Shown here: one piece after another, positions 20,156 through 62,260 of the stretch
Layout of the letters: every line of letters starts with the position of its first letter
Numbering within the stretch: position 1 is the stretch's first letter
From: Candidatus Latescibacterota bacterium
Lineage (GTDB): Bacteria > Latescibacterota > UBA2968 > UBA8231
Assembly (NCBI GenBank): GCA_965208105.1
Contig: OZ242318.1
Coordinates: 1,120,001-1,184,000 of the forward strand
Direction: 5' to 3'
DNA length: 64,000 nt
Translations under genes and position numbers: made by a program
The notes under the pieces: model-generated
The model's input: only the letters and a program-made list of their open reading frames with translations
Told to the model about the DNA's origin: nothing
Database searches by the model: none

Positions 20156-20335
20156 ACCGGTTGTCGTAACCGGTGTAATACCAAAAGGTTATACAAGGGG
20201 ATGCGCGAACCTCCTTCAATCAGCATCCCACTGCCAAAACGAGGGCATATTCCTCGTTGTAATTTGTTATAAGCCATAAAGTTGTCCACCGCGCGAAAGC
20301 AAGGGCAAAACGCCGTTACTTTACGTTCGCGCACG
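20156..20335 (-). promoter_or_regulatory. CRISPR leader
   Basis: Non-coding stretch between cas2 and the first repeat; 9-bp inverted repeat TGCGCGAAC (20202) / GTTCGCGCA (20325). Confidence 0.75.
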
Positions 20336-20626
20336 CTATAAGACCAGTGGCTCATTCAGATCCACGGGTTCACCGAGCCCGTGATGCTCCGTCTTGTCTC
20401 TGGCATCTTCGTCCAGGTGATAAAACCTGAGCGAATCCTGTTTTGGATCCATTTCCTTCAGCAGACGACTCCTGAGCGCTGCCCATTGGGTCTTTCCCAG
20501 GCGACATTCAAAGAGCGATTTCTGAACCCGGATACCGTAATCCTTACAGGCTCTTGCTACCTTGCGCAGGCGCCGTTGGCCAGCTCGATCTATCGTTGAA
20601 ACATCGTAAGCGATCAGGATGAACAT
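20336..20626 (-). CDS. cas2: CRISPR-associated Cas2
   Basis: LIAYDVST..RRLRKVARACKDYGIRVQKSLFEC..DSLRFY. Confidence 0.97.
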   Translation of the reverse strand: MFILIAYDVSTIDRAGQRRLRKVARACKDYGIRVQKSLFECRLGKTQWAALRSRLLKEMDPKQDSLRFYHLDEDARDKTEHHGLGEPVDLNEPLVL

Positions 20627-21687: not shown

Positions 21688-21714
21688 GTTTCAACCCGTT
21701 TCTTTACTGAAGTA
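21688..21714 (-). repeat. Degenerate CRISPR-repeat-like element abutting the cas1 start codon
   Basis: GTTTCAACCCGTTTCTTTACTGAAGTA matches the element at 22426 at 19/27 positions ungapped; all mismatches are transitions. Confidence 0.55.
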
Positions 21715-22425
21715 GTGAGCACCCTGGTCGCTGGTATCGAACACTGCCCGATAGGCCCGCACCAGCGTAGGCGGGACACTGGTGACTTCGGGTAGGCAAT
21801 GGTCAAAAAGTGAGCACTCGGAGCATTGGGGTTTGTGGACGGCTTGAGGTACCACTTCCTCTTCGATCAGCCGGTGCATGGCTTCGATGGCCTGTTCGGT
21901 GAGGCGGCGCAAATCCTCGGTAAATTCCACCTCTCGGCGGCGCTTGCTCTTGGCGTGGAAGATCGCCCCCTTGGGAATGTCCAGTCCGAACATTTCTTCG
22001 AGGCACAACGCTTGGGCGCAAAGCTGAGCGTCGTCGTTGTCGAATTTGCGGCGTTTGCCCTTTTTGTATTCAACTGGATAGACGCTTTCAACATTATCCG
22101 GCAAATATCGGGATATTTTTCGCTTAGAAGGGCGTTTTAGTTTCACCTCAACAATATCGCATTTTCCAGAAAGGCCCAACCTTTGGGACCATACCGGCAA
22201 CGCCCGAAGCACTTCTGAATCTACCGCCTTCTCGTACCCTGGAATATCGGCTTGCTCGTGAAATTGACTACCGATCAGTGTGTGCTCATTGTCGGTAAAA
22301 GTGCCCTCGACATGAATCAAGGCCGCCCGCCGTGGGCAATAGAGGTACTGGTTGATAGCGGAAAGCGCGATGATCCGCTCCCCGCTATCGAATGGGTGGA
22401 TCGGTTGGGTAGTCAATTCACTCAT
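21691..22425 (-). CDS. cas4: CRISPR-associated Cas4
   Basis: YLYCPRR, GKCDIVE, PVEYKKG, QLCAQALCLEEM, CSECSLFDHC Fe-S motif. Confidence 0.95.
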   Translation of the reverse strand: MSELTTQPIHPFDSGERIIALSAINQYLYCPRRAALIHVEGTFTDNEHTLIGSQFHEQADIPGYEKAVDSEVLRALPVWSQRLGLSGKCDIVEVKLKRPSKRKISRYLPDNVESVYPVEYKKGKRRKFDNDDAQLCAQALCLEEMFGLDIPKGAIFHAKSKRRREVEFTEDLRRLTEQAIEAMHRLIEEEVVPQAVHKPQCSECSLFDHCLPEVTSVPPTLVRAYRAVFDTSDQGAHYFSKETG

Positions 22426-22463
22426 GTTTCAATCCGCTCCTCCGCCGAAGTGAGAGGAGGCAT
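22426..22463 (-). repeat. Solitary CRISPR-repeat-like element between cas7 and cas4
   Basis: GTTTCAATCCGCTCCTCCGCCGAAGTGAGAGGAGGCAT; first 15 nt identical to the array repeat; hairpin retained with a compensatory pair. Confidence 0.88.
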
Positions 22464-22474
22464 ATACGTGAAAC

Positions 22475-23428
22475 TCACTCATGACGCCTGTGTAGGCGAA
22501 CGCCTCCGGGCAGCTCAGCACTGTCCCACCCGCAGCTAATCTCATAATCGGCAAAGGATTGGGGAAATTCTACGCTGTCCTTCAGTTTCACCTCGATTCC
22601 CTCAAAGAGCTTGTGAGCATGGGCGCAGCCGAGACGGGCTTCGCGTTTGTTTTGTTCGGCGTTATTCTCATGCTGAGTACCGACATGCTCAAAGTCGTAA
22701 ATCCCTCGCACCACCATTTCCCCGCGGGCAGCAGAGCGGTCGTGCTCAAACATGTGGTTGAGCGCATCGAAAAGGACTTCAAGGTCAGTGCTGGTGAAAC
22801 CTGTGCGCTCGGCGAAAGCAGGCGAGACATAAACCTTGGCAGCGTAGAGAGCGTATGGGACGATGTGCTTATTGCCCATGGTACGTTCTTTGTCGGCATC
22901 TTCCTCTTTGGTGACAGCTCCGCGAGTGATGGAGATTTCCAATGGCGTGATAGAATGGTAAGACTGGCCGAAGGTGAATTGCACCGGGCCCCGCACTTGT
23001 CCCCAAGCGGAACCTTTCATGATGTCGTCGCCGGTAGAGAGTACACCGCCGAATGTTCGCACGTCAAAGAATTCACGACACAGCCATTTCATGGCCGCTT
23101 CTTGCTTTTGGTCTTTGGAAGCTCCCGAGGCTAAACTCTCGCCGCTTTTTTCTATGCCGTTATTGATCTCGTTGTTGAGTACGGCACCCTGCCTGATGAG
23201 CAGGTTATAGCCATTACCATCGTCGCCAGTGCGCTCGGGCGGGAATGTTTCCACAAAGTTGCGCACCTTGCGCTTGAGACACACGTCGGAAACGATACCC
23301 CGATTGGTGTTGTGGTCTTGACGCGGCATGTTGCCAGCATCAGGATCGCCATTGGGATTTCCATTGGTGACCTCGAAGAGCAGCAAAACATCGTGCCGAT
23401 TGGTGAGAATATCGTTGTTCTGATTCAT
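22475..23428 (-). CDS. cas7: Type I-C Cas7 (Csd2)
   Basis: FEVTNGNPNGDPDAGNMPR, SDVCLKRKVRN, FFDVRTFG, GQVRGPVQ, FEHDRSAARGEM. Confidence 0.97.
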   Translation of the reverse strand: MNQNNDILTNRHDVLLLFEVTNGNPNGDPDAGNMPRQDHNTNRGIVSDVCLKRKVRNFVETFPPERTGDDGNGYNLLIRQGAVLNNEINNGIEKSGESLASGASKDQKQEAAMKWLCREFFDVRTFGGVLSTGDDIMKGSAWGQVRGPVQFTFGQSYHSITPLEISITRGAVTKEEDADKERTMGNKHIVPYALYAAKVYVSPAFAERTGFTSTDLEVLFDALNHMFEHDRSAARGEMVVRGIYDFEHVGTQHENNAEQNKREARLGCAHAHKLFEGIEVKLKDSVEFPQSFADYEISCGWDSAELPGGVRLHRRHE

Positions 23429-23455
23429 TGATGAGCCCTTTCTGTGAAAAATTTA

Positions 23456-23866
23456 TTAGTTGCTTTCCTTTTCTTCTTTTGCTGCTTCGCGGGCGACGCG
23501 GTCGGCGGCCTTTTGCTGGTAAAAGCCGAGGGCAAAGCGCCCCTGTGCATGCAAATCCAGTGTACGGGGAAATGGGTAGATTTTAGTTGACACTTCTTGA
23601 ATAGCCTTGTCCAAAGAGCGGTCATGTCCTTTGTACTTATCGGACTTACGGATATTGTTGAGATGGTGGCGGTTGAGCTTGAGGAGGACGGGGAACACTG
23701 AGGCTGGCGAGGCCATGGCAGTGCCAAAATAACGCTCGGCAACACCGGCTCCTTCGAGTTGATAATCATGTGCCTTGGCTTGGGCCTCGGCGAGTACAGC
23801 GAGTAGCCGTCCGCATTGATAGGCGGCATCTTCCGCCTTTGCATCCTGTTGTTCAGTAATTTCCAT
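23456..23866 (-). CDS. cas11: Putative Cas11c from an internal in-frame start in cas8c (136 aa)
   Basis: AAGGA SD 7 nt before an in-frame ATG (MEITEQ...) just ahead of the C-terminal helical bundle, as known for type I-C. Confidence 0.65.
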   Translation of the reverse strand: MEITEQQDAKAEDAAYQCGRLLAVLAEAQAKAHDYQLEGAGVAERYFGTAMASPASVFPVLLKLNRHHLNNIRKSDKYKGHDRSLDKAIQEVSTKIYPFPRTLDLHAQGRFALGFYQQKAADRVAREAAKEEKESN

Positions 23867-25300
23867 GATCTTTTCCTTTCGATTCCGATTGAGAATGAGC
23901 TTCGCCAAGGCGAACCGTGAATGGTTCAACAATGCCGTGCTTCCATCGCGTGCCATATCAACCCGCAGGCGGTTCAACATGGGATGCAAAAAAGCCAGTG
24001 AGGGCGCGGTTCCTTCCAGCGCGGCACGAAACAACTGGGCGGTCACTTCCGTCTGCAAATCTTTTGCGTCGCGTACTGTAGTGCAAGCCAGTCGGAACAA
24101 AGCTAATGGCGGCATTTTTTCTTTGCCAGTAGGCAGACGCACCGGTTCCAGATCGAGATCGCGGAACCAGTGTTGCAGGTTTTCTGTGGCGGTTTCCAGT
24201 GTAGTCTGCATCCAGTGGCGCACGACAATCCGGCCACTATTGCCGGCGAGAGTGACGGCATGGAATTGCTCTTGCCGTAGTGCCTCGCGTTCCCGTCCAG
24301 CCCACGGAGACTTCAAAAAATTCGCCACTGCTATGGGATCGGCTTGGTTGAGCAAAGCCCCAAAAGTGCTGGTGGCGTCCGTTTCATTACGGGTCCAAAA
24401 ACAGCAAGATGCCTGCCCTAAGCGGACAGAATGATCTTCGCGGTCGAGCATTGCGTTGAGCGCGGTGCAATAGGCAGTAGCTGCTCGGGTGGAGGTAGAA
24501 GCGTTGAGACTTTGCTCAAAACCGTAGGAGGCGAAGGCATCCTTATCAAACGAGACAATCGCCGCGCCAAAGGCTTGAGTGTTGGGCACTCTTTGGATTT
24601 TAGGATTGTGAGTCAGCGCAATAGGCTGATCGCTCTTCCCAGTGACCAAGCAGAGTCCGTGAGGCGCATCTGCTTCGTGGTCTTGATTTTCTTGCTCGAA
24701 TTGACTACGCCAAAAGGGTCGGATGTGAATCTCATCCTCCAGCAGCAATTGTTCTTCTACGCGGAATGAGAAGTTGTCCGGCCCTAGCTTGACCTCTCCA
24801 CCGTCGGCTTTAGTGATCCACCAAGCAGGTCTTTCTTTGGGCTTGGGGTCGGAACTGATTCCCCAACGCAAAAAGGATGGCATCTGCCCCGGCTCAGGCT
24901 TGAAAGCCAACAGGGTCTTGAGCACCGGGCTGAGTGTTTTCTCGTGGGCCTGTTTAATCTGTGTCCAAAAGTCATCGTATTTACGGAGGTTGTTCTCATT
25001 CCGGTCCTTCCGCTTCTTTTCAGACATAGGTCGTTCCGGGTTCGTGTCCAATCCGAACACGGCTGTAATACTGTCCGCCATGAACTCGGCCACCCCACCA
25101 GCCACCTTGGGTCGAGTTGTCTGTGGGCAATCGAACTCCTTACCTCGGTTCCTTTCCCCCTCGGTCTCCACCGGCCCCTGCCCCACGAGATTGCCCGTCG
25201 TGTCCAAAGTAATGATCCATCGCACCGCCTTGGGTTTGAATCCTAGGTTATTAAGGAGTTCTCGAGAGATTGCAAAATCGTTCAAATATTGCAGCAGCAT
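23456..25300 (-). CDS. cas8c: Type I-C Cas8c (Csd1)
   Basis: CLVTG, IVSFDKDAFASYG, AYQCGRLLAVL, QGRFALGFYQQ. Confidence 0.95.
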   Translation of the reverse strand: MLLQYLNDFAISRELLNNLGFKPKAVRWIITLDTTGNLVGQGPVETEGERNRGKEFDCPQTTRPKVAGGVAEFMADSITAVFGLDTNPERPMSEKKRKDRNENNLRKYDDFWTQIKQAHEKTLSPVLKTLLAFKPEPGQMPSFLRWGISSDPKPKERPAWWITKADGGEVKLGPDNFSFRVEEQLLLEDEIHIRPFWRSQFEQENQDHEADAPHGLCLVTGKSDQPIALTHNPKIQRVPNTQAFGAAIVSFDKDAFASYGFEQSLNASTSTRAATAYCTALNAMLDREDHSVRLGQASCCFWTRNETDATSTFGALLNQADPIAVANFLKSPWAGREREALRQEQFHAVTLAGNSGRIVVRHWMQTTLETATENLQHWFRDLDLEPVRLPTGKEKMPPLALFRLACTTVRDAKDLQTEVTAQLFRAALEGTAPSLAFLHPMLNRLRVDMARDGSTALLNHSRFALAKLILNRNRKEKIMEITEQQDAKAEDAAYQCGRLLAVLAEAQAKAHDYQLEGAGVAERYFGTAMASPASVFPVLLKLNRHHLNNIRKSDKYKGHDRSLDKAIQEVSTKIYPFPRTLDLHAQGRFALGFYQQKAADRVAREAAKEEKESN

Positions 25301-25302
25301 TA

Positions 25303-26115
25303 TCAGATTCCCTTGGGTTCGAGAATTTCAACTTCATCGGGATGGCAAGATAAGGTGGAATCCTCAATCTTGGCGCGGAAAAAACAGGCCCTAGGTTTAG
25401 CCAATTCACCGACGAAACGCGGAGTACTTTTCTTGGGTTTGTCCCCCAATTCATCGGGACGTTTCCAGCGAAAACCCTGAGCGCGGGCCGTGGGCGAAAA
25501 AACGTCGTAGAGCATCAAACCCAAATCCTCCACGGGCTGTCGCCAACTGTCACCCAATTCAGTGACTCGCTCTTCCAGAGCGGCTTGGGGGTCATCAACC
25601 CACTCGAAATCCGCCGCGAATTCACGCATACCCAAGGCAGGCCGATGGAAGCACTTGCCCTGCTGAGCGCGACGCTTGAATTCAGCGAAATACTTCACCA
25701 GTGTATCGTTTGGGTGATTCGCCAACGGCGTGGTACGCAGTTCGGCGCTGATGATGTATTCTACCTCTTGCAGGGCTAACATGTTGCGCTGAGTGCCGTC
25801 AGGTGCGCCTCCGCCAGCTTCAATGGGCGATACCTTTTCCGGCTGCCTCATCCATTGGCTGACGTTGCGTAGGCTGATGACCGATTGCACTTCATTGCGC
25901 CGAATCGAGGCCCACCGGCCTCGCTGAACCACCCGGATGGCAGCAACGCAATAGCAAACTTGGGGTTCCCAAAACACGGCTTCCAAAATGCCCCGTGCGG
26001 CAGAGGGCGTCATCACCGGATAGCTGACGCGCTCCACTTTCATTTCGGGACGGGTGAAACAGGCCCAATCGCCCCATACTCTCAGGTGTACATGAAAATT
26101 TTTATTATTTTTCAT
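25303..26115 (-). CDS. cas5: Type I-C Cas5d
   Basis: VWGDWACFTRPEMKVERVSYPVMTPSAARGILEAVFW, GKCFHRPALGMREF. Confidence 0.97.
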   Translation of the reverse strand: MKNNKNFHVHLRVWGDWACFTRPEMKVERVSYPVMTPSAARGILEAVFWEPQVCYCVAAIRVVQRGRWASIRRNEVQSVISLRNVSQWMRQPEKVSPIEAGGGAPDGTQRNMLALQEVEYIISAELRTTPLANHPNDTLVKYFAEFKRRAQQGKCFHRPALGMREFAADFEWVDDPQAALEERVTELGDSWRQPVEDLGLMLYDVFSPTARAQGFRWKRPDELGDKPKKSTPRFVGELAKPRACFFRAKIEDSTLSCHPDEVEILEPKGI

Positions 26116-28331
26116 AATAAGAAATCCTCAGTCGGACGTTGGTCGATAACCACGCCGAGATGTTCGTGATAAGCAGCTTCATCCAGTACGCTCAGTTCCA
26201 TACCGGGTAACAGCGGGCGAAGCAGTCCCATGTTGTCGACCTTCTGAAAATCGCGCAAATGCAGATTCACTATAAAGCGTTGAAGATCGCGCAAATCCTT
26301 GCGAGTGAAGCGCGGACCATCTATTTGGGGGCGCTCCCGGATAGCGGCTACCATTCCCAAGGCTTCCTCCCTTGGCGCGATTACAGCTTGGGTGTCATCG
26401 GAAATTACCTTCGCCTTGCTGGCTACTTCACGAAAACGCAATGCTTCTCGATCCTCCTGAATGGAGCTCTCTCGACGGCGTTGATAATCCGTGGGCACGT
26501 ATTGAAAAAGCTCGCCAAAGTAACGACGGAACAAATCCGGCTCGCCAGATAAGTCATCCGCGGACAACCGATATAGCAACCGCGCCGCAATGTCCGTAGC
26601 TACGCGATATACGCCGCCGGGCAGCTTGGGGTCTGTTGGCCGGAATACCACTACACGCCCCTTGTCGGGTAAGAGTCCTTCCCGATTACAGCGGCCCGCT
26701 GCTTGCACGATCGAATCCAGTGGCCCCAAGGCACGGTAAACCAACGGAAAATCAATATCCACTCCGGCCTCTATTACCTGAGTCGCCACCAACCAACAAG
26801 GTTTTTCGTTTTTCAAACGCCATTGCGCTTCCGCCAGAACTTTGAACCGATGCTCAGCGCACATGGCCGAGGAAAGATGCAGTACACCTTCTAATTTTTG
26901 CCCGCGCAGCAGTTCCCACCATTCAGCCGCCTGTTTGCGCGTATTCACCACACCCAAGGCTTGAGGCTCATTCGTCCATTCCTTAGCCAATTCAGGCCAA
27001 TCGCTCTCCGTGGACCGCACCTCGTAAATTACCCGGCCTAGCTTCTGAAACAACTCGCTAGGCTGTGCCCCGATCTCTTTCACTTCATCCACATCGAAAC
27101 CATTCGCCAACGATGTGCTGCGACTAAAGGCTGGTTGGGTAGCGGTGGAGAAAACGAAACTCGTGCAGTAGTGTTTTTGGAGATCGCGTAGCACATGCAG
27201 GAGCGGATTGAGCAGATGCGAAGGCAGCGTCTGCACTTCATCCAGTAATACCACGGAACTCGCAATGTTGTGCAGTTTTCGGCACTTGGAGGTGCGATTG
27301 GCAAAGAGGGACTCAATGAATTGTACTGAGGTGGTGACGATGACCGGAGCGTCCCAGTTCTCCGCTGCCAATTCCTCTGGGGACCGGCCTTGCTCCCCAT
27401 CGTCATCCTTCGCAACTACTGCCGAATGATGCTCAATCACGATGCCTTCGTTTTGGGGATCAAGCACTTTGCGATATTCGGCGGCATTCTGTTCAATGAT
27501 TGACAGATAAGGTATCACCACGATCACCCGCTGCATCCCATGTCGCCGTGCATGTTCCAAGGCAAAGGCCATGCTCGATAGCGTTTTGCCACCTCCCGTC
27601 GGCACGGTTAGAGAAAAGAAGCCTACTGGTTCCGCCGCCTTTGCCAAGCAGTCCTCAAACACCCTGTTGCGTAACTGATTGAGTTTGCCGGAAGCATCAA
27701 ACTTGCCTCGGTGTGCTTGCAGTCGCTTCAGTAGCAACGGGACATCCAGCTTCACTGGATAGCGCTCCCGTCCTGAGCTGAATTGTTCCGTATCAAGAAA
27801 ATCCGCATCCACCAAGCAGGAAAACAACATCCGCACGTAGAATTCGGCGACGGCTGGATCCCCCGAGCGCTCGACAAATTCGGGTTCGGCCAGCTTGTTT
27901 GGAATTTTTTCCAGTTCCGTCTCAAACCGCTTTACCAGAGGATCGAGACGGTTCATGGCATCGTACTTTTCTCCGCAGACCAATCCTTGCAAATCACTTA
28001 CGTTATGTAGACCCGCATGATGTCCGGCAATGGCAAACGCCGGTGCCAGCCATCCTCTGATGAATGCCAGTGCAGCACCATACACCGCATGATGGGTTTC
28101 AGCCGATCCCGGACGCTCGTCTGCCAGATATTCTTGGAAAGCCTGGCTATATTTTCCCAGATCGTGGAGCAGACCGGCCAATTTGGCACCATCGGCAAAA
28201 CCGAACGGTCCGGCGAATCCCCGAGCCCTGTCCGCTACGTTTCGCAAATGCTCGGATAACGGTTGCCAACGCGATTTATTCGGATCGGGTTCTCCAGTAG
28301 CCGTTTCGGCTGTATGGGCATAGTAGTTCAT
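26112..28331 (-). CDS. cas3: Cas3 HD nuclease-helicase
   Basis: LLHDLGK, LVDADFLDT, VPTGGGKT, DEVQ, QAAGRCNREG. Confidence 0.97.
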   Translation of the reverse strand: MNYYAHTAETATGEPDPNKSRWQPLSEHLRNVADRARGFAGPFGFADGAKLAGLLHDLGKYSQAFQEYLADERPGSAETHHAVYGAALAFIRGWLAPAFAIAGHHAGLHNVSDLQGLVCGEKYDAMNRLDPLVKRFETELEKIPNKLAEPEFVERSGDPAVAEFYVRMLFSCLVDADFLDTEQFSSGRERYPVKLDVPLLLKRLQAHRGKFDASGKLNQLRNRVFEDCLAKAAEPVGFFSLTVPTGGGKTLSSMAFALEHARRHGMQRVIVVIPYLSIIEQNAAEYRKVLDPQNEGIVIEHHSAVVAKDDDGEQGRSPEELAAENWDAPVIVTTSVQFIESLFANRTSKCRKLHNIASSVVLLDEVQTLPSHLLNPLLHVLRDLQKHYCTSFVFSTATQPAFSRSTSLANGFDVDEVKEIGAQPSELFQKLGRVIYEVRSTESDWPELAKEWTNEPQALGVVNTRKQAAEWWELLRGQKLEGVLHLSSAMCAEHRFKVLAEAQWRLKNEKPCWLVATQVIEAGVDIDFPLVYRALGPLDSIVQAAGRCNREGLLPDKGRVVVFRPTDPKLPGGVYRVATDIAARLLYRLSADDLSGEPDLFRRYFGELFQYVPTDYQRRRESSIQEDREALRFREVASKAKVISDDTQAVIAPREEALGMVAAIRERPQIDGPRFTRKDLRDLQRFIVNLHLRDFQKVDNMGLLRPLLPGMELSVLDEAAYHEHLGVVIDQRPTEDFLL

Positions 28332-44758: not shown

Positions 44759-45388
44759 ATGGCCCGCACCGTCGCCATCGGCCAGCGCATCGAGCTGGTC
44801 TCCATGGACCCGCACTTCCACGATATTTCCATTGCCCTCTACCTCCAGGAGGGCGACGAGGGGCCTGAATACCTGGTCCACACCTACAGCGGCCGGGAGG
44901 GAGCCCCCCGGCGCATCGCATTCGTGAAGAGCGCCATGGCAACCCTCGGCGGCCTCCAGTTCACCGGGGCGGGACTGCTGCGGTTCCACTGCGGAGATCC
45001 GCACCTCCTGGGGATCAAGCGGGTGTTCCTCGAGGCCTGCAAGCTCGACTCCAAGACCGCAGTCGAAGCGCGCCCTTTGTCCATCTTCGACCGCAAATGC
45101 GGCCGCAACATCCTCGCCGTCAGTTGTGGGGGCGGGGTCTACCGAATCGTTGCCGAAGGAGGGGAAGAGGGCGCCGAGCGGCGCATCTCGGCCATTGCTG
45201 GAGGTCTGATCAAACTGGGAGAAATGGAGGACCGCCAGACCGACGAAGTGGCCTTTTCCTGCGGCGAAGCCCACGACGCCCTTGTCGGCCTGCTGCTGGT
45301 GCGGGCGCCCAACGTGCGGGCCGCCTTGCGCGAGCAGGAGGCAGCGGAGGCGCGCGGCACCCTTTCCGCTCCCAGCCAACAGAAATAA
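44759..45388 (+). CDS. Hypothetical protein, first gene of the methyl-transfer cluster
   Basis: ORF with host-like codon usage, co-oriented with the cluster; no family recognised. Confidence 0.7.
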   Translation: MARTVAIGQRIELVSMDPHFHDISIALYLQEGDEGPEYLVHTYSGREGAPRRIAFVKSAMATLGGLQFTGAGLLRFHCGDPHLLGIKRVFLEACKLDSKTAVEARPLSIFDRKCGRNILAVSCGGGVYRIVAEGGEEGAERRISAIAGGLIKLGEMEDRQTDEVAFSCGEAHDALVGLLLVRAPNVRAALREQEAAEARGTLSAPSQQK

Positions 45389-45411
45389 TCCGCGCAGGAG
45401 AGGAGATGATC

Positions 45412-46461
45412 ATGGCAACCCAGACTGCAGCCCCGATGAGCCCGCGCCAGCGCGTACTGGCGGCCCTGCGCCGCGAGCCGGTGGACCGCACCCCCTGCTG
45501 CAATCCCACCTCGCTGGCCACGGTGGAGCTCATGGACCTGGTGGACGCCCACTTCCCGCAGGCCAACCGCGAGCCGGAGCTCATGGCGCGGCTGGCGGCC
45601 ACCGGACATACCGAGCTTGGTTTCGACAGCATCATGCCCGTCTTCACCATCATTCAGGAGTCGTCCGCCCTGGGGTGCAAAATCCAGTGGGAGCAGAAGG
45701 ACAACTGGCCCACGGTGAGGATGCGCGAGCCCATCTGGGAGGAACCCGACGACATCGCGATTCCGGCCGACTTCCTCACCCACCAGGACACCACTTGCGT
45801 TATCGAAGCCATCAAGATTCTCAGAAAGGAATTCGGCGACGAGGTGGCCATCGTCGGCAAGACCATGGGTCCCTGGTCTCTCGGCTACCACTGCTTCGGG
45901 GTGGAGCCGTTCCTGCTTATGTCCCTTGACGACCCGGGCAAGACCAAGCTCTGCCTCGACAAAATGAAGGAAATCACGGTGGACTTCGGCGTCGCCCAGA
46001 TCGAAGCCGGGGCCGACGCCCTGACCCTTCCCGACCACGCCACCGGCGACCTCGTCAGCGGCGAGTACTACGCCCGCTACCTGCGCGACCTGCACATCGA
46101 ATTCGTCGACCGCATTCCCATTCCGATCATCCTCCACATCTGCGGCCGCACCGTGGACCGCATGGATTACATCGCGCAGACTGGGATGGCTGCCTTTCAC
46201 TACGACTCGAAGAACCAGCCGGACGAATCCATGGAGGTGGTGAAGGACCGGATCTCCCTGGTGGGCAACATCAACAACCCTGAGACCCTCTTCTCCAAGG
46301 GCCCAGAGGACGTCCGCGGGGAAGTCTACAAGAATCTCGATTCGGGCGTGCAGCTCGTCGGACCCGAATGCGCCATTCCGCTGCAGACCTCCATCGAGAA
46401 CCTCAAGGAAATACCGCAGGCCGTGCGCGACTGGCACAGGGACCATCCGGCCGCCAATTGA
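45412..46461 (+). CDS. MtaA/CmuA-family (URO-D fold) corrinoid methyltransferase
   Basis: MSPRQRVLAAL..VDRTP, QIEAGAD, LHICG and ECAIP Zn-ligand motifs, GNINNP. Confidence 0.88.
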   Translation: MATQTAAPMSPRQRVLAALRREPVDRTPCCNPTSLATVELMDLVDAHFPQANREPELMARLAATGHTELGFDSIMPVFTIIQESSALGCKIQWEQKDNWPTVRMREPIWEEPDDIAIPADFLTHQDTTCVIEAIKILRKEFGDEVAIVGKTMGPWSLGYHCFGVEPFLLMSLDDPGKTKLCLDKMKEITVDFGVAQIEAGADALTLPDHATGDLVSGEYYARYLRDLHIEFVDRIPIPIILHICGRTVDRMDYIAQTGMAAFHYDSKNQPDESMEVVKDRISLVGNINNPETLFSKGPEDVRGEVYKNLDSGVQLVGPECAIPLQTSIENLKEIPQAVRDWHRDHPAAN

Positions 46462-46481
46462 GCTTTAAAAGAAGGAACGAC

Positions 46482-47237
46482 ATGGCAGAAATCGCCGACA
46501 TAGAAAACGAGTTCATTCGCGCCGAAATCGAGGAATACATCGAGCGCCCCGACGAGATAGAGCGCCTGGTCGGCCTCTTCGCCGAAGCCAGCCCCGCCAT
46601 GCAGAACATCTCCGCCGCCCTCATCGACGGGGACAACGGCACCGTTGACGAGTTGACCAAGGAAGCCCTCGACGCGGGGACCGAGGCCCTGGAGATCATG
46701 GACGACGGCCTCATCGCCGGCATGGCGGTGGTGGGCATCAAGTTCCGCGAGAACTTCATCTTCGTCCCCGAGGTGCTGGCCTGCGCCCGCGCCATGAAGG
46801 CGGGCATGGCCTACATCGAACCCATCCTCTCGGCTTCGGGGGTCGAGCCCATCGGCACCGTGGTCATGGGCACGGTCAAGGGAGACCTGCACGACATCGG
46901 CAAGAACCTGTGCATCATGATGCTGCGCGGCGCCGGATTCGTGGTCCACGACCTGGGAGTGGACACCTCCGAGGACGAATTCCTGGATGCCATCGAGGAG
47001 CACGAGGCACCCCTCATGGGCATGTCGGCGCTGCTTACCACCACCATGCCCAACATGGGAAAGACCATCGAGGCCTTCATCGACGCCGACCTGCGCGACG
47101 ACGTCAAGATCATGGTGGGCGGAGCTCCCGTCACCCAGGAGTTCGCCGACGACATGGGGGCCGACGGCTACGGCAAGGACGCCCTCGCCTGTGTCGCCCT
47201 GGCCAAGGACTTGCTCGCGGAACCCGCAAGCGCCTAG
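46482..47237 (+). CDS. Corrinoid (B12-binding) methyl-carrier protein
   Basis: FVPEVL cap, VKGDLHDIGKNL (DxHxxG), SALLTTT, VGGAPVT. Confidence 0.93.
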   Translation: MAEIADIENEFIRAEIEEYIERPDEIERLVGLFAEASPAMQNISAALIDGDNGTVDELTKEALDAGTEALEIMDDGLIAGMAVVGIKFRENFIFVPEVLACARAMKAGMAYIEPILSASGVEPIGTVVMGTVKGDLHDIGKNLCIMMLRGAGFVVHDLGVDTSEDEFLDAIEEHEAPLMGMSALLTTTMPNMGKTIEAFIDADLRDDVKIMVGGAPVTQEFADDMGADGYGKDALACVALAKDLLAEPASA

Positions 47238-47288
47238 TGTCCCGTCGCAGAGATAGGTTGACGAAATTGGGCCGCCGACGCGCCCGGC
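47235..47288. repeat. Partial second copy of the MITE left end
   Basis: 52/54 identity to 43627-43680. Confidence 0.8.
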
Positions 47289-47406
47289 CGGCGAGGTGCA
47301 CGGGCGCGGTTATGAGGGAGAGACCGCACCGCGAAAATTGTCCCCGGGGGCCGTGAAGCTGGGCCTCTACTGATCCCCTGTGCGCTCTGAAACTGTTGGA
47401 AACGAG

Positions 47407-49314
47407 ATGCAGAAAATCGACGCGGAAGCCTACCGGAAGCGCATCGACAAGCTCAGCGAGATATACGCGGGAATCGCCGCCCACGCCGACGAGCAGGCCA
47501 CCTACCGCTGCCCCTACAAGAACCGCTTCGACGAGTGCACCGCCAAGTTCGGCTGCCGCAACCAGCGCAAGCCCGGCTCCCAGGGGGGCCTGCTCAGATG
47601 CGGCGGCGACGACAAGCTCGACTACCGCAGCGCCTGGGAGACCGAACCCGGCGCTCCGCCGGCCAGGGACGGGATAGAAGCGGGACCGGGCAGCATCCGG
47701 CACGACGGCGCCAGCCGGCCGCTGGCGGTGGGGCAGACGGTCTTCGACTACGCCGACGAGCTGGCCGTGCAGGTGCCCACCTCCTGCGGCCGGACCGGGC
47801 ACTGTCACGAGTGCATCGTCGAGATCAAGGAGGGGATGGAGGCCCTGAACGGGCGGACCCCGGACGAGTCTTTCCTGCAGGACAACTACAGGCTGGCCTG
47901 CCAGGCCCGGGTGGATGACGCCGCCATCGACGTGGAGTTCGCCCCCCTGCGCCGCACCCCCAAGATCCTCTCGATCAGCCGGGAAAAACCCATTTCCCCC
48001 GATCCCATGGTCACCCGGCGGGACGGCACGGTCTACTACGGCGACGAAGCCGTCGACTCCTACCGCGGCCACCTCTACGGCCTCGCCGTGGACCTGGGCA
48101 CCACCACCGTGGTCCTCAACCTGGTTGACCTGGAGAGCGGCCGCACCCTCCACGTCAGCTCCTTCGAGAACCCGCAGCGCTTCGGTGGAAGCGACGTGAT
48201 GCACCGCATCTCCTACGACGGCACCTATCCCGGGGAACTGGGGCAGGCCATCGTCAAAGCGCTCAACCACGAGATCGTGGCCATGGCCCGGCGGCTCGAA
48301 TTCACCCGCCAGGAAATCTACGAAGTGGTCGTCGCCGGCAACTCCACCATGCGCGACATCTTCTTCGGCCTCGACGTCCAGAGCATCGGCCAGAAACCCT
48401 ACAAATCCCTTGTCGAGCACGACTACCTCGAAGGCAGGCGCAAAACCACCGCCCTGGTCGAGAAGACGCGGCGCCTGGGGCTGCGCGCCAACCCCGCCGC
48501 CCGGGTCTACGGCATGCCCCTGATCGCCAGCCACGTGGGCGCCGACACTGCCGCGGACCTGGTGGCCATCGACATGGAGTCCCAGGAAGAGGTGGTCATG
48601 CTGGTGGACGTGGGCACGAACACCGAGGTGGTGGTGGGCCACCGCGGCCGCCTGTTGACCGCCTCCTGCCCCGCCGGACCCGCCTTCGAGGGCGGCCTGA
48701 TCACCTATGGCATGCCCGGCTACGAGGGGGCCATCGAATCCATCCGCCTGCGCGGCGAACGCTTCGCCTGCCGCACCATCGGCGGCCTCGAGCCCCAGGG
48801 CATCTGCGGCTCCGGCCTCATCGACCTGCTGGCCGAACTGCGCCGCCACGAGCAGATGACCCCCAAGGGGGTGTTCTCCGGCAAGAGGTACGAACTGACC
48901 GTCGTTCCCGAGCGCAACATCACCTTCTCGCGCGCCGACGCCAGCAATCTCGCCCAGGCCAAGGCGGCCAACTACTGCGGCCAGCTCATTGTGCTGCGCC
49001 ACTTCGGGATCGACCCGCACGAGGTGAGCAAGCTCTACCTGGCCGGGGGCTTCGCCTACTACGTCGACGTGCCCAGCGCGGTCGAGATCGGGTTTCTGGC
49101 TCCGGTGCCCGAGGAGCGCATCGTCAAGATCGGCAACGCCGCGGTCCAGGGCGCCCGGGAAGTCCTGCTGTCCAGGGGGCGCCGCGAGGCCATCGAATCC
49201 CTGGTCAAAACCGTGGAGCACGTCGAGCTTGAGACCACCCCCGACTTCTTCGAGATCTTCGTCGAAGGTTGCCAGTTCAAGCCGATGCCCCCCCCTTCCA
49301 CCGTGTCGAACTGA
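47407..49314 (+). CDS. ASKHA-ATPase/2Fe-2S reductive activator of corrinoid proteins (RACo/DUF4445-like)
   Basis: CGRTGHCHEC..RLACQ ferredoxin, VDLGTTT, NPQRFGGSDV, DVGTNTE, AGPAFEGG, GICGSG. Confidence 0.9.
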   Translation: MQKIDAEAYRKRIDKLSEIYAGIAAHADEQATYRCPYKNRFDECTAKFGCRNQRKPGSQGGLLRCGGDDKLDYRSAWETEPGAPPARDGIEAGPGSIRHDGASRPLAVGQTVFDYADELAVQVPTSCGRTGHCHECIVEIKEGMEALNGRTPDESFLQDNYRLACQARVDDAAIDVEFAPLRRTPKILSISREKPISPDPMVTRRDGTVYYGDEAVDSYRGHLYGLAVDLGTTTVVLNLVDLESGRTLHVSSFENPQRFGGSDVMHRISYDGTYPGELGQAIVKALNHEIVAMARRLEFTRQEIYEVVVAGNSTMRDIFFGLDVQSIGQKPYKSLVEHDYLEGRRKTTALVEKTRRLGLRANPAARVYGMPLIASHVGADTAADLVAIDMESQEEVVMLVDVGTNTEVVVGHRGRLLTASCPAGPAFEGGLITYGMPGYEGAIESIRLRGERFACRTIGGLEPQGICGSGLIDLLAELRRHEQMTPKGVFSGKRYELTVVPERNITFSRADASNLAQAKAANYCGQLIVLRHFGIDPHEVSKLYLAGGFAYYVDVPSAVEIGFLAPVPEERIVKIGNAAVQGAREVLLSRGRREAIESLVKTVEHVELETTPDFFEIFVEGCQFKPMPPPSTVSN

Positions 49315-49331
49315 CCGACGGCCGCATCTCC

Positions 49332-50933
49332 ATGACCACCTCCACCAAACCCGTTGCCGGTGCCTGGCACAAGTCGACCCTGCGCCACCTGCTCACCGAA
49401 ACCGACACCTTCGTCACCTGCGTCGAGCTGGTCACCTCGCGCGGCATCATCACCGAGCGCAGCGGCCGCCGCATCCTGGAGCTGGCGCGCCGGCTCGCCG
49501 AACATCCCCAGGTCCACGCCCTGAGTATCACCGACAACCCCGGCGGCAACGCCATGATCGGCGCCGATACCATGGGGACCGATCTCATCTCCCGCGGACA
49601 GGAGGTCATCATCCACCTCTCCTGCAAGGACTGGAACCGCAACGCCCTGCAGAGCCGCGGCTGGCAGTTGGCCAGCGAGGGGTTCGACAACGTCCTTGCC
49701 CTTTCCGGAGACTACCCCATCGACGGCTACCAGGGCCAGGCGGGGGGCGTCTTCGACATCGACTCGGTGGGCCTGCTGGAGATGTTCGCCTCCATGAACG
49801 CCGGCCTCCGCGCGCGGGGCGCCCGGCGCAGGAAGGCGCGCATGAAACGCACCCGCTTCTTCCTGGGGGCGGTGGTCAACAACCACAAGCTCCACGAGCG
49901 CGAGGTGATGCCGCAGTACTTCAAGCTGGCCAGGAAAATCGAAAGTGGAGCGGACTTCATCATCAATCAGATCGGCTACGACAGCCGCAAGCAGGACGAG
50001 CTGCTCAAGTACATGGCCTGTCGCGGCCTGGAGGCGCCGGTGCTGGGCAACGTATACGTGCTCAGCGGTCCCGCGGCAAGGGCCTTCAACTCCGGCCGCA
50101 TCCCCGGAGTGGTGGTGAGCGACGAACTCCTCGCCCTGAGCGAAAAGCACTCCGGCGGCGCGGACAAGGGCAAAGCCTTCTTCCTCGAGCTGGCGGCCAA
50201 GCAGTGCGCCGTCGCCAAGGGCCTGGGCTACCGCGGAGTCTACCTGGGGGGAAACCTGAGATACGAGGACTACGAGAGCGTCCTGGAAACAACCGCCGGA
50301 TTCGGGGACGGCGACTGGAAGGATTTCGCCCGGGAAATAGGCTTCAGCCTGCCCGGGGAGTTCTTCTTCTTCGAGCCGGAAGCGGGGACCGGCCTGAGCT
50401 CCACCGAGATCAGCCGCGCCTACCTGGACTCGAAGGCCCCGGAGTCCCTTGCCCGGGCGAGGCGGGGCGTCCCGCTGAGCTACAAGATCAACCGGGCGGT
50501 GCACGAGAAGGTCTTCGAAAAGGGGAGTTCGGGCTTCCGCGCCGGCAGGAAAATCTACGACCGCCTCGAAAAGGCCCGACCCGGGGTGCAGAAGCTTGCC
50601 CACGGCATGGAGCATGCCCTCAAGATAGCCGCCTTCGACTGCCGCGACTGCGGCGACTGCTCCCTGCCCGACATCGCCTATCTCTGTCCCGAGTCCCAGT
50701 GCGTCAAGAACCAGCGCAACGGTCCCTGCGGCGGCACGCGCCAGGGTCTCTGCGAGATCGGCGAAAAAGAATGCATATGGGCCCGCGCCTACGACAGACT
50801 CAAGGCCTTCGGAGAGGAGGAAGAGATGCTGGACCGGCCGGTTGTCTTCAAGAACGGCGCCCTCAAGGGTACCAGCGCCTGGGCCAACACCTTCCTGGAA
50901 CGGGACCACCACGGCGAACGCGAAAAGGAATAG
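49332..50933 (+). CDS. metF: Methylenetetrahydrofolate reductase with C-terminal Cys-rich (MetV-like) domain
   Basis: ITDNPGG, IHLSCKDWNR, LALSGD, KIESGADFIINQ; CRDCGDC..CPESQC..NGPCGG..CE..CIW. Confidence 0.85.
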   Translation: MTTSTKPVAGAWHKSTLRHLLTETDTFVTCVELVTSRGIITERSGRRILELARRLAEHPQVHALSITDNPGGNAMIGADTMGTDLISRGQEVIIHLSCKDWNRNALQSRGWQLASEGFDNVLALSGDYPIDGYQGQAGGVFDIDSVGLLEMFASMNAGLRARGARRRKARMKRTRFFLGAVVNNHKLHEREVMPQYFKLARKIESGADFIINQIGYDSRKQDELLKYMACRGLEAPVLGNVYVLSGPAARAFNSGRIPGVVVSDELLALSEKHSGGADKGKAFFLELAAKQCAVAKGLGYRGVYLGGNLRYEDYESVLETTAGFGDGDWKDFAREIGFSLPGEFFFFEPEAGTGLSSTEISRAYLDSKAPESLARARRGVPLSYKINRAVHEKVFEKGSSGFRAGRKIYDRLEKARPGVQKLAHGMEHALKIAAFDCRDCGDCSLPDIAYLCPESQCVKNQRNGPCGGTRQGLCEIGEKECIWARAYDRLKAFGEEEEMLDRPVVFKNGALKGTSAWANTFLERDHHGEREKE

Positions 50934-50953
50934 TAAAACTGGGGAACCATGCA

Positions 50954-51988
50954 ATGAAACCTGAAGGCCTCGACAAGGAATTCATCATCATCGGCGAGAA
51001 CGTCCACACCACGCGCATCCTCCTGCGCAAGGGCAAGCTCGTCACCACCAACCCGGACGGAGTCGAGTCGGTGCGCTTCTACGACTCGAACAGGAAACGG
51101 CGCTACCTGGCCATTCCAGCGAATGTCCAGCGCTCCCAGGACTACGAGGAGGGACGGGTCAAGCACGTCAAGATCGCCATCCAGGCCGCCATGGGCGGCG
51201 GCCCCGAAGCGGCCACCGGCATGGACTACCTCAGGCGCCTGGTCGAGCGCCAAGTGGCGGCGCGAACCGACTTCCTCGATCTCAACGTGGACGAAATCTC
51301 CCTGAAGCTGGAAGACCAGAAAACCGCCATGCAGTGGCTGGTGCGCACGGTGCAGGACATGTGCTCCATCCCCCTTTCGGTGGACTCCTCCAACATCGAG
51401 ATCATCGCCGCGGGCCTCGAAGCCGCCGCCGGCAACGGACGCCGCAACATGCTCAACTCCGCCTCCCTGGAACGCCTCGAGGCCCTGGACCTCGCCCACC
51501 GCTACGATTCCCGGGTCATCGTCACCGCGGCCGGGGCGGCGGGCATGCCCCAGAACGACGACGAGCGCGTCGACAACGCCACGCGCATGGTGGAGGCGGC
51601 GCTCGGCAAGGGCATCGCGCTGGCCGACATCTACGTCGATCCCTTGATCTTTCCCATCTCGGTGGACGGGGAGAACGGCAACTACAGCTTCGAGGCCATG
51701 CGCCGCCTGCGCGCCGATTTCGGCCCGGAGATCCACATAAGCGGAGGATTCAGCAACGTTTCCTTCGGACTTCCCTGCCGCCGCCTGGTCAACGACGTCT
51801 TCATGAATCTCGCCGTGGAGGCCGGCGCCGACAGCGGCATCGTCGACCCGGTCACCAGCGGGCTCGACGAGGTTTTCCGCATGGACCGCGGCTCGAGGTC
51901 CTACGAGCTGGCCGCCGACCTGCTGCTGGGCCGGGACCAGTACTGCAGGAACTTCCTGCGCGCCTACCGCAAAGGCGAACTGCAATAG
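50954..51988 (+). CDS. Pterin-binding methyltetrahydrofolate:corrinoid methyltransferase (AcsE/MetH-domain-like)
   Basis: IIGENVH, FLDLNVD, PLSVDSSN, IYVDPLIFP, GFSNVSFGLP. Confidence 0.85.
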   Translation: MKPEGLDKEFIIIGENVHTTRILLRKGKLVTTNPDGVESVRFYDSNRKRRYLAIPANVQRSQDYEEGRVKHVKIAIQAAMGGGPEAATGMDYLRRLVERQVAARTDFLDLNVDEISLKLEDQKTAMQWLVRTVQDMCSIPLSVDSSNIEIIAAGLEAAAGNGRRNMLNSASLERLEALDLAHRYDSRVIVTAAGAAGMPQNDDERVDNATRMVEAALGKGIALADIYVDPLIFPISVDGENGNYSFEAMRRLRADFGPEIHISGGFSNVSFGLPCRRLVNDVFMNLAVEAGADSGIVDPVTSGLDEVFRMDRGSRSYELAADLLLGRDQYCRNFLRAYRKGELQ

Positions 51989-51998
51989 GAGCGGACCC

Positions 51999-52265
51999 AT
52001 GGCCCGATACCAGATCCTCTACTGGCAGGACATTCCCGCTCAACTGCGCGCCTTCGACGACCGCAAGCCCATCAATCGCCCCTTGCCCCCGGTCTTCCAG
52101 GAGGAGATCGACCGCCTGGCCATGGAAGAGGGCCTGTTCGGCACCGACGACTACCTCGAACAGTGGCGCTGGAGCGAGAAGCGGGAACGCCCCGGCACCG
52201 CCGCGGAGGTGCTCGACGCGCTGGAGAGGGAAATCCGCGAGCAGTTCGACCACCTGGACAAGTAG
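51999..52265 (+). CDS. Small conserved protein ('virulence factor' Pfam-type, usually next to metF)
   Basis: ILYWQDIPAQ..LP..FQEEIDRLAM..DDYLEQW. Confidence 0.7.
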   Translation: MARYQILYWQDIPAQLRAFDDRKPINRPLPPVFQEEIDRLAMEEGLFGTDDYLEQWRWSEKRERPGTAAEVLDALEREIREQFDHLDK

Positions 52266-60409: not shown

Positions 60410-60694
60410 CTACTCATCTCCGCTCTCCTCCCCCTTTGCGGCCAGGTGGTCCTTCATCGCGGCCACCACCCCATCGTCGTCGGGACTCGAGGACACGAGG
60501 GCGGCGAATCCTTCCTCATCCATCTTCACTTCCTCCAGGAAGCTCTGGTCGGCCCCTCAGAAGTAGACGTAGTCGCCGAGACGGCCCTCCTGATAGGCGC
60601 GGACCTTGTCGGTTATGCGCGCCAGCCAGTGCATTTCTCCGATGATCATGCCGCGGGCGCGGGGTTTGAAATCCAGAACCTGTGAATCACTCAT
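60410..60694 (-). CDS. DUF5069-like protein with in-frame TGA (candidate selenoprotein, 94 aa)
   Basis: AGGAGG SD; ATGAGTGA overlap with the upstream stop; WLARITDKVRA..GDYVYF-TGA-GADQSFL; hairpin 13 nt after the TGA. Confidence 0.7.
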
Positions 60695-61814
60695 GGCGAA
60701 TCTCCTCCTCTTCAAGGGATACCAGCTCGTTGAACCGAGCTCTGAACTCCGTGGTCAATGAAACGTCGCTCAATGCGGCGGTGAGGGCGCCGGCAATCTG
60801 CTTCAGGCGCCGACGCGGCCCCTGCCAGGCCTGCAGAAGCGCGGAATGGTGGTGATCGGACCGCCCTTCCAGCGCCTCCAGGAGCAGGGCCGCCGCATTC
60901 AGGTGAAAGACGATGTGATGGCCGTCCAGGGCCTGGGCCCGGTCCCCGGGGTCCCGCGCCGCGGATGCATACCGGCGCAGGGCGTCCCGGTCCAGCAGGC
61001 TGGTGAAGCTCCCGTGCGGACGGCCGGCGCCCATGCAGGCGGTATACTGGACCAGGCGGCGCTCGGTCCAGTCCCAGCCGATCTTGGCGAACTCTATGAA
61101 GCTCAGGCGGCTGGACGGCGGATCTATGACGATGTTGCGCGCGTTGTAGTCGGTGGTTCCGAGGGCGGGGCCGCGGGCGCAGAGCCGGCTGAGTATTTCG
61201 TCGAGCAGGGAGCGGCAGCGCGCCGCCCCGGGGGCGCCTGATCCGCCATGGAGGCGCAGGATGCGCTCCAGGCCCTGGCGCGCCCGCAGGCCGGCCTGCT
61301 CCCAGGCGCGCCGCAGGTGGGACACGCCGCCCGCCGGGCATACCAGCGGCTCCAGCAGGCGCCTGTTTTCGCCCAGGACCTCCTCGATGCGGCAAAGACC
61401 CGCGACGGCCCGGCGGGTGCAACCTGAGGCGCCGGCCGCGCCCCTCTCCTGGACCAGGTCGTCCAGGGTGTGCGAGCCGCAATGTTCGAAGAAGACGAAG
61501 CTGGTCTCCGCGTCCAGGCCCAGCAGCCTCGGCACCGGGCAAGCCCGGGCCCCCAGCAGACCGAGAACCACCTGCTCCACTTCAAGCAGGTCGTAGAGCC
61601 GGCCGCGGGTGTGGACCCCGAAGAGCTGGAACTTGGCCACCAGCATTTGCCGCCCCTCCAGAAGAACTTCCCAGACGTGCGGAGCCAGGGGCGCGACGCC
61701 CTCCACCCGGGGTCCACCCGGCAGCAGTGACGGCGCCCGCGCCCGCAGGTAGGCCTCCGGGCTGGGCCAGCTGCGGCGGTCGTCGCCTGCTCGGGGCTTC
61801 TCACGAACCCGCAT
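60687..61814 (-). CDS. Kinase-like (APH-fold) protein
   Basis: VAK, CPVPRLL, TTDYNARNI, FIEF variant catalytic motifs. Confidence 0.6.
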   Translation of the reverse strand: MRVREKPRAGDDRRSWPSPEAYLRARAPSLLPGGPRVEGVAPLAPHVWEVLLEGRQMLVAKFQLFGVHTRGRLYDLLEVEQVVLGLLGARACPVPRLLGLDAETSFVFFEHCGSHTLDDLVQERGAAGASGCTRRAVAGLCRIEEVLGENRRLLEPLVCPAGGVSHLRRAWEQAGLRARQGLERILRLHGGSGAPGAARCRSLLDEILSRLCARGPALGTTDYNARNIVIDPPSSRLSFIEFAKIGWDWTERRLVQYTACMGAGRPHGSFTSLLDRDALRRYASAARDPGDRAQALDGHHIVFHLNAAALLLEALEGRSDHHHSALLQAWQGPRRRLKQIAGALTAALSDVSLTTEFRARFNELVSLEEEEIRHE

Positions 61815-62181
61815 GGTCGAAGACGATGACCTGGGCGGTGATCTTGCCGGCCTGGTTGTTGTAGTCGGGATTTTCGTTCATGGCGAAGTGCAGGATGCCG
61901 TCACCGTCGGCGATGAAATCGTGGCGGCTTCCCACCGCGAATGGATTGCCCGAGCCGACGCGGGCGATCAGGGCGCCGACGTTGGCCCCGGAGAGGAGAT
62001 ATCCAGTTCCGGCCGGGAGGTTGTAGACCCCGTCGGCGCCGCACCAGACGATCTGGTTGCGCATGTCCGGGGACCACACGTCCTCCGCGTCGATGACCAC
62101 CCTCTGGCCTTTTCGCAGGCGGATCAGGGTGTCCTGCCACTCGGAGCTGGGACGCACCGTGCGCGAAATGGTTACTGCCAC
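61801..62181 (-). CDS. Small beta-sandwich (LecA/PA-IL-like) protein
   Basis: WQDT..GQRVVI.A..W..GALIARVG..F.VG..G.LHFAMNE..NQAG; AGGAG SD, GTG start. Confidence 0.55.
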   Translation of the reverse strand: MAVTISRTVRPSSEWQDTLIRLRKGQRVVIDAEDVWSPDMRNQIVWCGADGVYNLPAGTGYLLSGANVGALIARVGSGNPFAVGSRHDFIADGDGILHFAMNENPDYNNQAGKITAQVIVFDHAGS

Positions 62182-62260
62182 CTGATCTCCTTCCTCCTTT
62201 GTGGTGAAAATCGCGGAAAAATGCTATACCGCCACCGAAGAGGTGTCAAGAACCCCTGAT

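Follow-up and report, generated by a model that had tools for sequence, protein, structure and literature searches.

Gene organization at the DUF5069 locus

The DNA analyzed here is a stretch of 64,000 nucleotides of contig OZ242318.1 (positions 1,120,001 to 1,184,000) from a Candidatus Latescibacterota bacterium (assembly GCA_965208105.1), hereafter referred to, at its full length, as the window. On its minus strand lies a short reading frame interrupted by a single TGA codon, and we consider it highly likely that its two parts form a single gene, which encodes a DUF5069-family selenoprotein of 94 residues and is the last in a three-gene operon (Table 1). Judged by sequence, the gene has the features by which bacterial selenoprotein genes are usually recognized, namely an in-frame UGA codon paired with cysteine in homologs and a putative selenocysteine insertion sequence (SECIS) element. 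In the proposed mechanism, the ribosome would reach the UGA at codon 46, and the hairpin located 13 nt downstream, with its UGGA loop, would recruit SelB carrying Sec-tRNA(Sec); selenocysteine (Sec) would then be inserted in place of termination, and the remaining codons would be translated up to the TAG. We infer SelB dependence, the actual incorporation of selenium and the chemistry of the residue.

The anatomy of the gene is as anticipated in the original prediction, which was made from the letters of the DNA: the coordinates, a strong Shine-Dalgarno sequence, a coupled start, the TGA at codon 46 and a frame that stays open for 48 codons past it, up to the TAG at 60412-60410, are all present on the minus strand. 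The ATG of the gene and the end of the upstream open reading frame (ORF; stop TGA at 60689-60687) share 8 nt, which suggests translational coupling. An ordinary ORF listing splits the gene into one ORF of 52 aa (60557..60715) and another of 39 aa (60410..60529). The GC content at codon positions 1, 2 and 3 is 0.62, 0.38 and 0.76 before the TGA, and 0.75, 0.38 and 0.81 after it, which is the coding pattern of the neighboring genes. Thus, the host-like codon usage claimed for the region holds for the overall pattern, but the GC content at third positions (GC3) is slightly below the 0.84-0.94 of the neighbors.

Table 1. Features of the DUF5069 gene and its operon, in window coordinates
Feature	Position	Strand	Remarks
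Selenoprotein gene (predicted), short-form DUF5069, Sec at residue 46	60410..60694	-	94 codons + TAG; translation with TGA = U
Shine-Dalgarno-like GAGGAGGAG	60702..60710	-	7 nt spacer to ATG; direct reading of the sequence
ATG start	60692..60694	-	homologs begin at the aligned Met
In-frame TGA, proposed Sec codon 46	60557..60559	-	faces invariant Cys; TGA common to 71/80 loci
SECIS-like hairpin GCUUCC-UGGA-GGAAGU	60528..60543	-	6-bp stem 60543-60538 / 60533-60528; loop UGGA 60537-60534
True stop TAG	60410..60412	-	read from sequence and translation
Upstream operon gene, 375-aa kinase-like (APH-type) phosphotransferase	60687..61814	-	same strand upstream in 52/80 loci
First operon gene, 126-aa protein of no named family	61801..62181	-	upstream of the kinase-like gene in 51/80 loci
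Promoter-like TTGACA-17-TAGCAT	62221..62249	-	~40 nt before the first operon gene; consensus scan 1 vs 0.2 expected

Conservation of the TGA codon in related loci

A scan of genome contigs yielded 136 pattern matches, among which 111 relatives were confirmed by tblastn, and the best 80 of these 111 loci (1.56 Mb in total) were analyzed. At the position of residue 46, 71 of the 80 loci carry TGA, five carry TGT and four carry TGC. Thus, the Cys/TGA pairing expected at this column is recovered by tblastn (TGC or TGT in 9 of the 80 loci), with cysteine and not tryptophan as the counterpart, and the TGA is shared with other assemblies. The frame continues beyond this codon to a proper stop in all loci but L058, where the contig ends first, and the read-through ORFs of the related loci, counted from the aligned start, are 81-98 aa long. 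The loci are labeled as Latescibacterota, Gemmatimonadota/Gemmatimonadetes and Poribacteria, along with single bins of Planctomycetota, Opitutales and 'Alphaproteobacteria'. The closest relative, L001, is located on chromosome OZ244619.1 of a Latescibacterota metagenome-assembled genome (MAG); its protein is 86% identical to that of the window, and the two loci have neighbors in common at 58-92%.

Purifying selection acts on the part of the gene downstream of the TGA: across 2485 pairs drawn from the window and 70 TGA loci (L058 was left out), the mean ratio of nonsynonymous to synonymous proportions (pN/pS) is 0.24 before the TGA (codons 7-45) and 0.45 after it (codons 47-81), these being uncorrected proportions with synonymous sites near saturation. 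A pseudogene, or a sequencing or assembly error that turned TGC or TGT into TGA, would take a single base change, and the slightly lowered GC3 of the gene is in line with such an origin, but the presence of TGA in the same column of 71 of the 80 independent loci, the selection on the downstream part and the hairpin that follows the TGA specifically in TGA forms leave this explanation with next to no probability. An origin of the TGA forms from a single contaminating sequence is improbable in view of their divergence, with 47-86% identity to the window protein.

In the 75-codon alignment used for the tree, identical protein rows come from differently labeled MAGs in three cases (L013/L016/L018/L028, L017/L019 and L006/L009), with clashes between Gemmatimonadetes and Latescibacterota and between Alphaproteobacteria and Latescibacterota. 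Such clashing labels on identical rows point to inconsistent taxonomy or binning rather than biology.

Protein family and the residue at position 46

The DUF5069-like identity proposed for the protein is well supported by profile comparison: the read-through protein (P0001) matches the Pfam family DUF5069 (PF16798) with an E-value of 1.2e-13 and 51.9 bits, against a gathering cut-off of 27. The match spans residues 11-89 on profile positions 4-82 of 133 and crosses the TGA, and it leaves the last third of the model unmatched. The family profile also matches PDB entry 3omd ('Uncharacterized protein'; E 3e-26), in which a Cys aligns with residue 46. The 12 homologs retrieved by a word-index protein search are 57-63% identical and without exception have Cys at column 46; the motif at the site is Y-x-[YF]-[PF]-[U/C]-x-[AQ]-D. 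Among 51 more distant DUF5069 representatives, the column holds Cys in 36, Ser in 11, and Trp, Pro, Gly and Asp in one each. The DUF5069 motif with a Cys at this column, which the original prediction gave, is therefore found in the close homologs, in most of the distant ones and in the known structure.

The word-index search returned no full-length protein more than 63% identical to that of the window, though there are DNA relatives with 69-86% identity; the Sec forms are therefore absent from that protein collection as whole proteins. In an exhaustive search of representatives, 11 of the 103 matches break off directly in front of the site, in …YIYP or …YVYP; one further match is a C-terminal fragment, and another (P0014) has Trp at the site. 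No family in NCBIfam release 20.0, selenoprotein-specific models included, matched at E up to 1, and the Atlas, queried with homologs, gave nothing for DUF5069 beyond its own family.

If the TGA were a true stop, only an N-terminal peptide of 45 residues would be made, and the conserved stretch that follows would be a separate small ORF or a conserved RNA element. The GGAGGAA of the window hairpin does resemble a Shine-Dalgarno sequence and is followed by an in-frame ATG at codon 58, and in one relative (P0037) the downstream piece of 37 aa was called as a gene. However, codon 58 is of start type in only 16 of the 71 TGA forms, and ATG in 9; the Pfam domain and the alignment with PDB 3omd run across the TGA without a break; and the Cys forms, encoded in the same operon, are each one continuous protein. 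Termination at codon 46 is accordingly, in our view, highly improbable.

A general reading of TGA as sense (Trp or Gly, as in NCBI tables 4 or 25), or its read-through by a near-cognate tRNA, could be prompted by the Trp of P0014. This Trp precedes an FLEE motif, which is the translation of the hairpin core in TGA forms, and is itself probably a TGA read under another code. In the window, TGA is a normal stop that ends 28 of the 50 complete ORFs picked, Pfam-supported genes included. When all six frames of the 64 kb were scanned for TGA codons flanked on either side by 25 or more open codons with a coding-type composition, codon 46 of this gene was the single candidate, and no second selenoprotein gene was found in the window. 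In 48 GC-rich loci, 25 other same-frame TGA candidates were noted, 10 of which were scanned against Pfam. Six of these 10 had matches, with the TGA located where the domains of one gene end and those of its neighbor begin, and four matched nothing; none of the 10 resembles read-through. With Cys, rather than Trp or Gly, as the aligned residue, a general sense reading of TGA has a negligible probability.

A SECIS-like hairpin downstream of the TGA

The hairpin in the window is as originally described, beginning 13 nt past the TGA, with G in the second loop position followed by another G; the distance from the UGA to the loop is 19 nt. For comparative analysis, 51 nt from the TGA onward were aligned for the window and 70 TGA loci (n = 71). 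RNAalifold predicts six pairs in this alignment, columns 17-22 with 27-32, which are those of the window hairpin. In a seven-pair version, 93.2% of the cells are paired, compared to 79.5% in shuffled alignments (none of 500 reached the observed value) and 33-70% in controls with slid partners. The covariation score is 0.332 vs 0.124 in shuffles, again with none of 500 as high. Pair 18-31 is C-G in 50 of the 71 sequences and G-C in the other 21, and is broken in none. Pair 17-32 occurs as GU, AU, UA and GC; on a poorly resolved tree, it switched between canonical types 12 times or more.

The coding sequence itself is constrained at synonymous sites. The hairpin core, TTC CTG GAG GAA, is nearly fixed, with a third-position entropy of 0-0.19 bits vs 0.73-1.93 bits elsewhere (the TGA itself apart). 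The codon for Leu53 is CTG in all 71 sequences, compared to 36% of the other 298 Leu codons in these genes, and that for Glu55 is GAA in 65 of the 71, compared to 35% elsewhere. In the nine Cys forms, the codons of the core vary, as do both Glu residues. The core hairpin is part of the minimum free energy (MFE) fold in 67 of the 71 TGA forms vs 2 of the 9 Cys forms. The 12-mer of the core occurs 64 times on both strands of the 1.56 Mb, each time 15 nt after this TGA.

The fit to the bacterial SECIS (bSECIS) pattern that the original prediction proposed is thus borne out in loop, stem, loop G and spacing, with covariation and synonymous-site conservation in addition. The bSECIS model (bSECISearch), as given in the legend to Figure 2 of PMC13188914, has a loop of 3-9 nt, an upper stem of 4-16 bp, a G in the first two loop positions, a distance of 16-37 nt from the UGA to the loop and an MFE of at most -7.5 kcal/mol; the window hairpin, with a loop of 4 nt, a stem of 6 bp, the loop G and a distance of 19 nt, is within the geometric limits, but is minimal, and its -6.6 kcal/mol on its own falls short of the energy limit. 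Whereas bSECIS elements bear little resemblance to each other, according to the same source, the 12-nt core is here almost invariant over several phylum labels, which is unusual. A search of Rfam gave no gathering-level match in the window, and between 60350 and 60750 there were chance-level matches only.

Two variants of the element were observed. In a subclade of TGA forms (L031, L039 and L053-L055), the 3' arm has GGGA for GGAA, with the pair kept as a U-G wobble; these five loci gave no tblastn match to the upstream kinase-like or 126-aa genes. The Cys form of L008 (TGT; 10136-10186) keeps a perfect hairpin at the SECIS position, with a UACA loop that lacks the loop G, and may represent a recent Sec-to-Cys conversion.

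Selenocysteine machinery and points against a selenoprotein

The selA, selB and selD genes and tRNA-Sec were searched for in the window and in the best 80 loci, by tblastn and with ARAGORN. The 64-kb window has no tRNA of any kind, the loci yielded no tRNA-Sec, and no SelA, SelB or SelD domains were found among 50 window ORFs. With the E. coli SelA, SelB and SelD proteins as queries, tblastn gave a single match in the window and the loci, to a GTPase domain truncated where L059 ends. A BSepDB supplement lists Latescibacterota assemblies, with the organisms of this database spanning 88 lineages, and Sec-type hydrogenases have been reported from Poribacteria (PMC13582414). By these entries and hydrogenases, the phyla involved are recorded to include Sec users.

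The same UGA could, in principle, be recoded through the same hairpin and SelB by a tRNA of the tRNA-ReC (SelC*) type, in which case the product would carry Cys. Such tRNAs, which decode UGA as Cys given a downstream SECIS, exist in some Sec-type genomes, and nothing in the present data separates insertion of Sec from that of Cys. However, they are found in about 17% of Sec-type genomes according to PMC13582414, no tRNA is present in the window, and the UGA with its hairpin would have been kept in 71 genomes without evident benefit over TGC or TGT, the codons that nine relatives use. We consider recoding to Cys to be very unlikely.

Several observations weigh against a selenoprotein. The search for selA, selB, selD and tRNA-Sec came up empty in the window and in the best 80 loci (1.56 Mb), although such an outcome is expected by chance. 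The presence of Ser at column 46 in the 11 distant DUF5069 members implies that the residue is not essential across the family, and the window protein and that of L001 carry Phe before the Sec, where Pro is usual. As to redox chemistry, the protein lacks a CxxC-type partner, and conservation does not extend to a second Cys (column 69). With regard to the hairpin, the switch from C-G to G-C at pair 18-31 amounts to one event on the tree; the stability of the hairpin alone is weaker than the published limit; and in an 86-nt fold that includes upstream sequence the pairing is different (z = 0.43). The fold of the RNA downstream of the UGA alone contains the hairpin: the 48 nt after the UGA have an MFE of -11.1 kcal/mol, with the hairpin included, through extra lower pairs that are not conserved. 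The seven-pair version averages -8.3 kcal/mol over the 71 TGA forms.

Evolution of the Sec and Cys forms

In a quick tree of 80 rows and 74 columns, from which the residue-46 site was masked, the TGA forms make up two groups, one of 50 sequences labeled as Latescibacterota or Gemmatimonadota, including that of the window, and one of 21 sequences from Poribacteria; the nine Cys forms fall between the two. At least two changes of the Sec/Cys state are needed, or three when the hairpin columns are left out. Because both TGA groups share the hairpin core, we think that a Sec-bearing ancestor or gene transfer is probably a likelier origin than two independent gains, although the tree is too weak to decide.

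Operon context and possible function

The three genes of the operon overlap and are arranged in the order 126-aa, 375-aa and DUF5069. The promoter-like site at 62249-62221 is a consensus match only. In tblastn searches, the pair was present directly upstream in 8 of the 9 loci with Cys forms, and in none of the 22 Poribacteria-type loci (L059-L080). Since those eight Cys-form loci share the upstream operon, the Sec and Cys forms are orthologs. In Poribacteria the context differs: UPF0182 lies on the upstream side and pheA on the downstream side. Three Poribacteria loci were examined, and in one of them the Sec-form DUF5069 gene directly follows a gene (L062:8747-9970) for a fusion of glutaredoxin with a pyridine-nucleotide disulphide oxidoreductase; this fusion of glutaredoxin and flavoprotein reductase is a possible redox partner.

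By sequence, the family of the 375-aa protein is predicted to be a divergent APH-type phosphotransferase. Six of its 27 members match Pfam APH (PF01636; best E 7.8e-9), and some sources name homologs 'phosphotransferase'; the window protein itself matches no Pfam family at E up to 1. K61, E80, D222 and N227, which we take to be the catalytic positions of the kinase fold, are invariant in the family. Homologs of the 126-aa protein, coming from differently labeled MAGs, are 67-98% identical and share 38 invariant columns, WCGADG among them, an unusually strong conservation for a protein without a name. The 126-aa protein has no sequence match in Pfam, NCBIfam, PADLOC or PDB. With its homologs as queries, the Atlas offers a lead to clusters of the PA-IL lectin-like type (score 0.96); in one of these clusters, the family is found on 17%. 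Sequence searches of PDB with both upstream proteins gave no significant match. A known defense system was considered for the operon and rejected, with no matches in a PADLOC scan of the three proteins.

Residue 46 is likely to be functionally critical, because Sec sits where the orthologs hold an invariant Cys, and we infer from this Sec/Cys pairing that it would be the reactive center of the protein. The usual reason for the use of Sec is redox or nucleophilic chemistry. Tentatively, the protein might provide a redox or nucleophilic center located beside a charged cluster formed by R12, R26, D29, K30, R32 and D49. It is conceivable, again with low confidence, that the DUF5069 selenoprotein would work with the two proteins encoded upstream in the coupled operon, the small lectin-like one and the APH-type kinase.

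In an extended version of this scheme, Sec would mark the active site of a novel enzyme system with three components: the lectin-like protein with an invariant Cys, the APH-type kinase and the DUF5069 protein. Its chemistry would be undescribed, for example, a selenium-dependent reduction or cleavage of a small molecule phosphorylated by the kinase, and transfer would have carried the gene, with its nearly invariant 12-nt SECIS core, among genomes with at least three phylum labels. We regard this scenario as speculative and rather unlikely; if it is true, the spread by transfer implies that the hairpin can be read by very different SelB proteins.

Other features of the window

Apart from the DUF5069 operon, the window contains a CRISPR array (15352-~20100; 67 repeats with a period of 71-74 nt), adjoined by a complete type I-C cas operon on the minus strand (20125-28331) with cas2, cas1, cas4, cas7, csd1/cas8c, cas5d and cas3. 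An IS630-like transposase at 13678-14738 is encoded in two consecutive ORFs, the first with helix-turn-helix domains and the second with DDE_3, and is either frameshifted or split. The stretch from 6 to 29 kb has a GC3 of about 0.6, compared to about 0.9 in its flanks, and this low GC3 suggests an acquired island. A corrinoid-type methyl-transfer cluster (45097-52265) comprises a URO-D family protein, a RACo activase, an MTHFR + DUF5981 protein and a small PF13769 protein; within this cluster, the ORF filter gave nothing in 46461-47380 and 50933-51999 (about 0.9 and 1.1 kb).

Comparison with known selenoproteins

By the lists searched, DUF5069 is a probable new selenoprotein family of a well-known kind. 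Neither PF16798 nor DUF5069 occurs in the consulted portion of the main text of PMC13188914, a 2026 review in which more than 110 prokaryotic selenoprotein families are tabulated, and neither term occurs in the part of the BSepDB supplement covered. Two motifs of the family had no matches in two GOS 2008 supplement files, and an identity with GOS_A, an old unnamed selenoprotein family, was rejected, the sequences being unrelated. No paper in the literature searched contains the term 'DUF5069', and '3OMD' was found only in papers where the string apparently denotes the metabolite 3-O-methyldopa.

The family would add to the prokaryotic selenoproteome in poorly studied uncultured phyla. Sec is described as located in the active sites of selenoproteins (PMC12013277 and PMC13326102), and because of this location, the natural replacement of Cys by Sec points to a catalytic or redox residue in DUF5069, a family with a structure (3omd) but no function. 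The conserved operon with kinase-like and lectin-like proteins names candidate partners. Gene calling splits or truncates the gene, and since 11 of the 103 representatives end before the TGA and no full-length Sec protein was found, dozens of genomes labeled as Latescibacterota, Gemmatimonadota and Poribacteria appear to be misannotated at this locus. The unusually small and invariant SECIS-like element is a convenient test case for the recognition of hairpins by SelB.

The closest known counterparts are the Cys-containing DUF5069 proteins (PF16798 and PDB 3omd), which have the same domain and the same motif around the site, and the close Cys forms among them are encoded in the same three-gene operon. 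The window form differs from these in the Sec (TGA) in place of Cys and in the SECIS-like hairpin inside the coding sequence, and its subfamily is short (81-98 aa), without the C-terminal third of the Pfam model. Compared with the DUF523, DUF1858, DUF3179 and DUF1573 selenoproteins, which represent bacterial families without an assigned function that were recognized through Sec/Cys homology, the window protein belongs to another family and has a lone Sec, with no CxxU or UxxC. It shares with them, as described in PMC13188914, the UGA aligned to Cys, the bSECIS directly downstream and the natural occurrence of both Sec and Cys forms, and presumably relies on the same mechanism.

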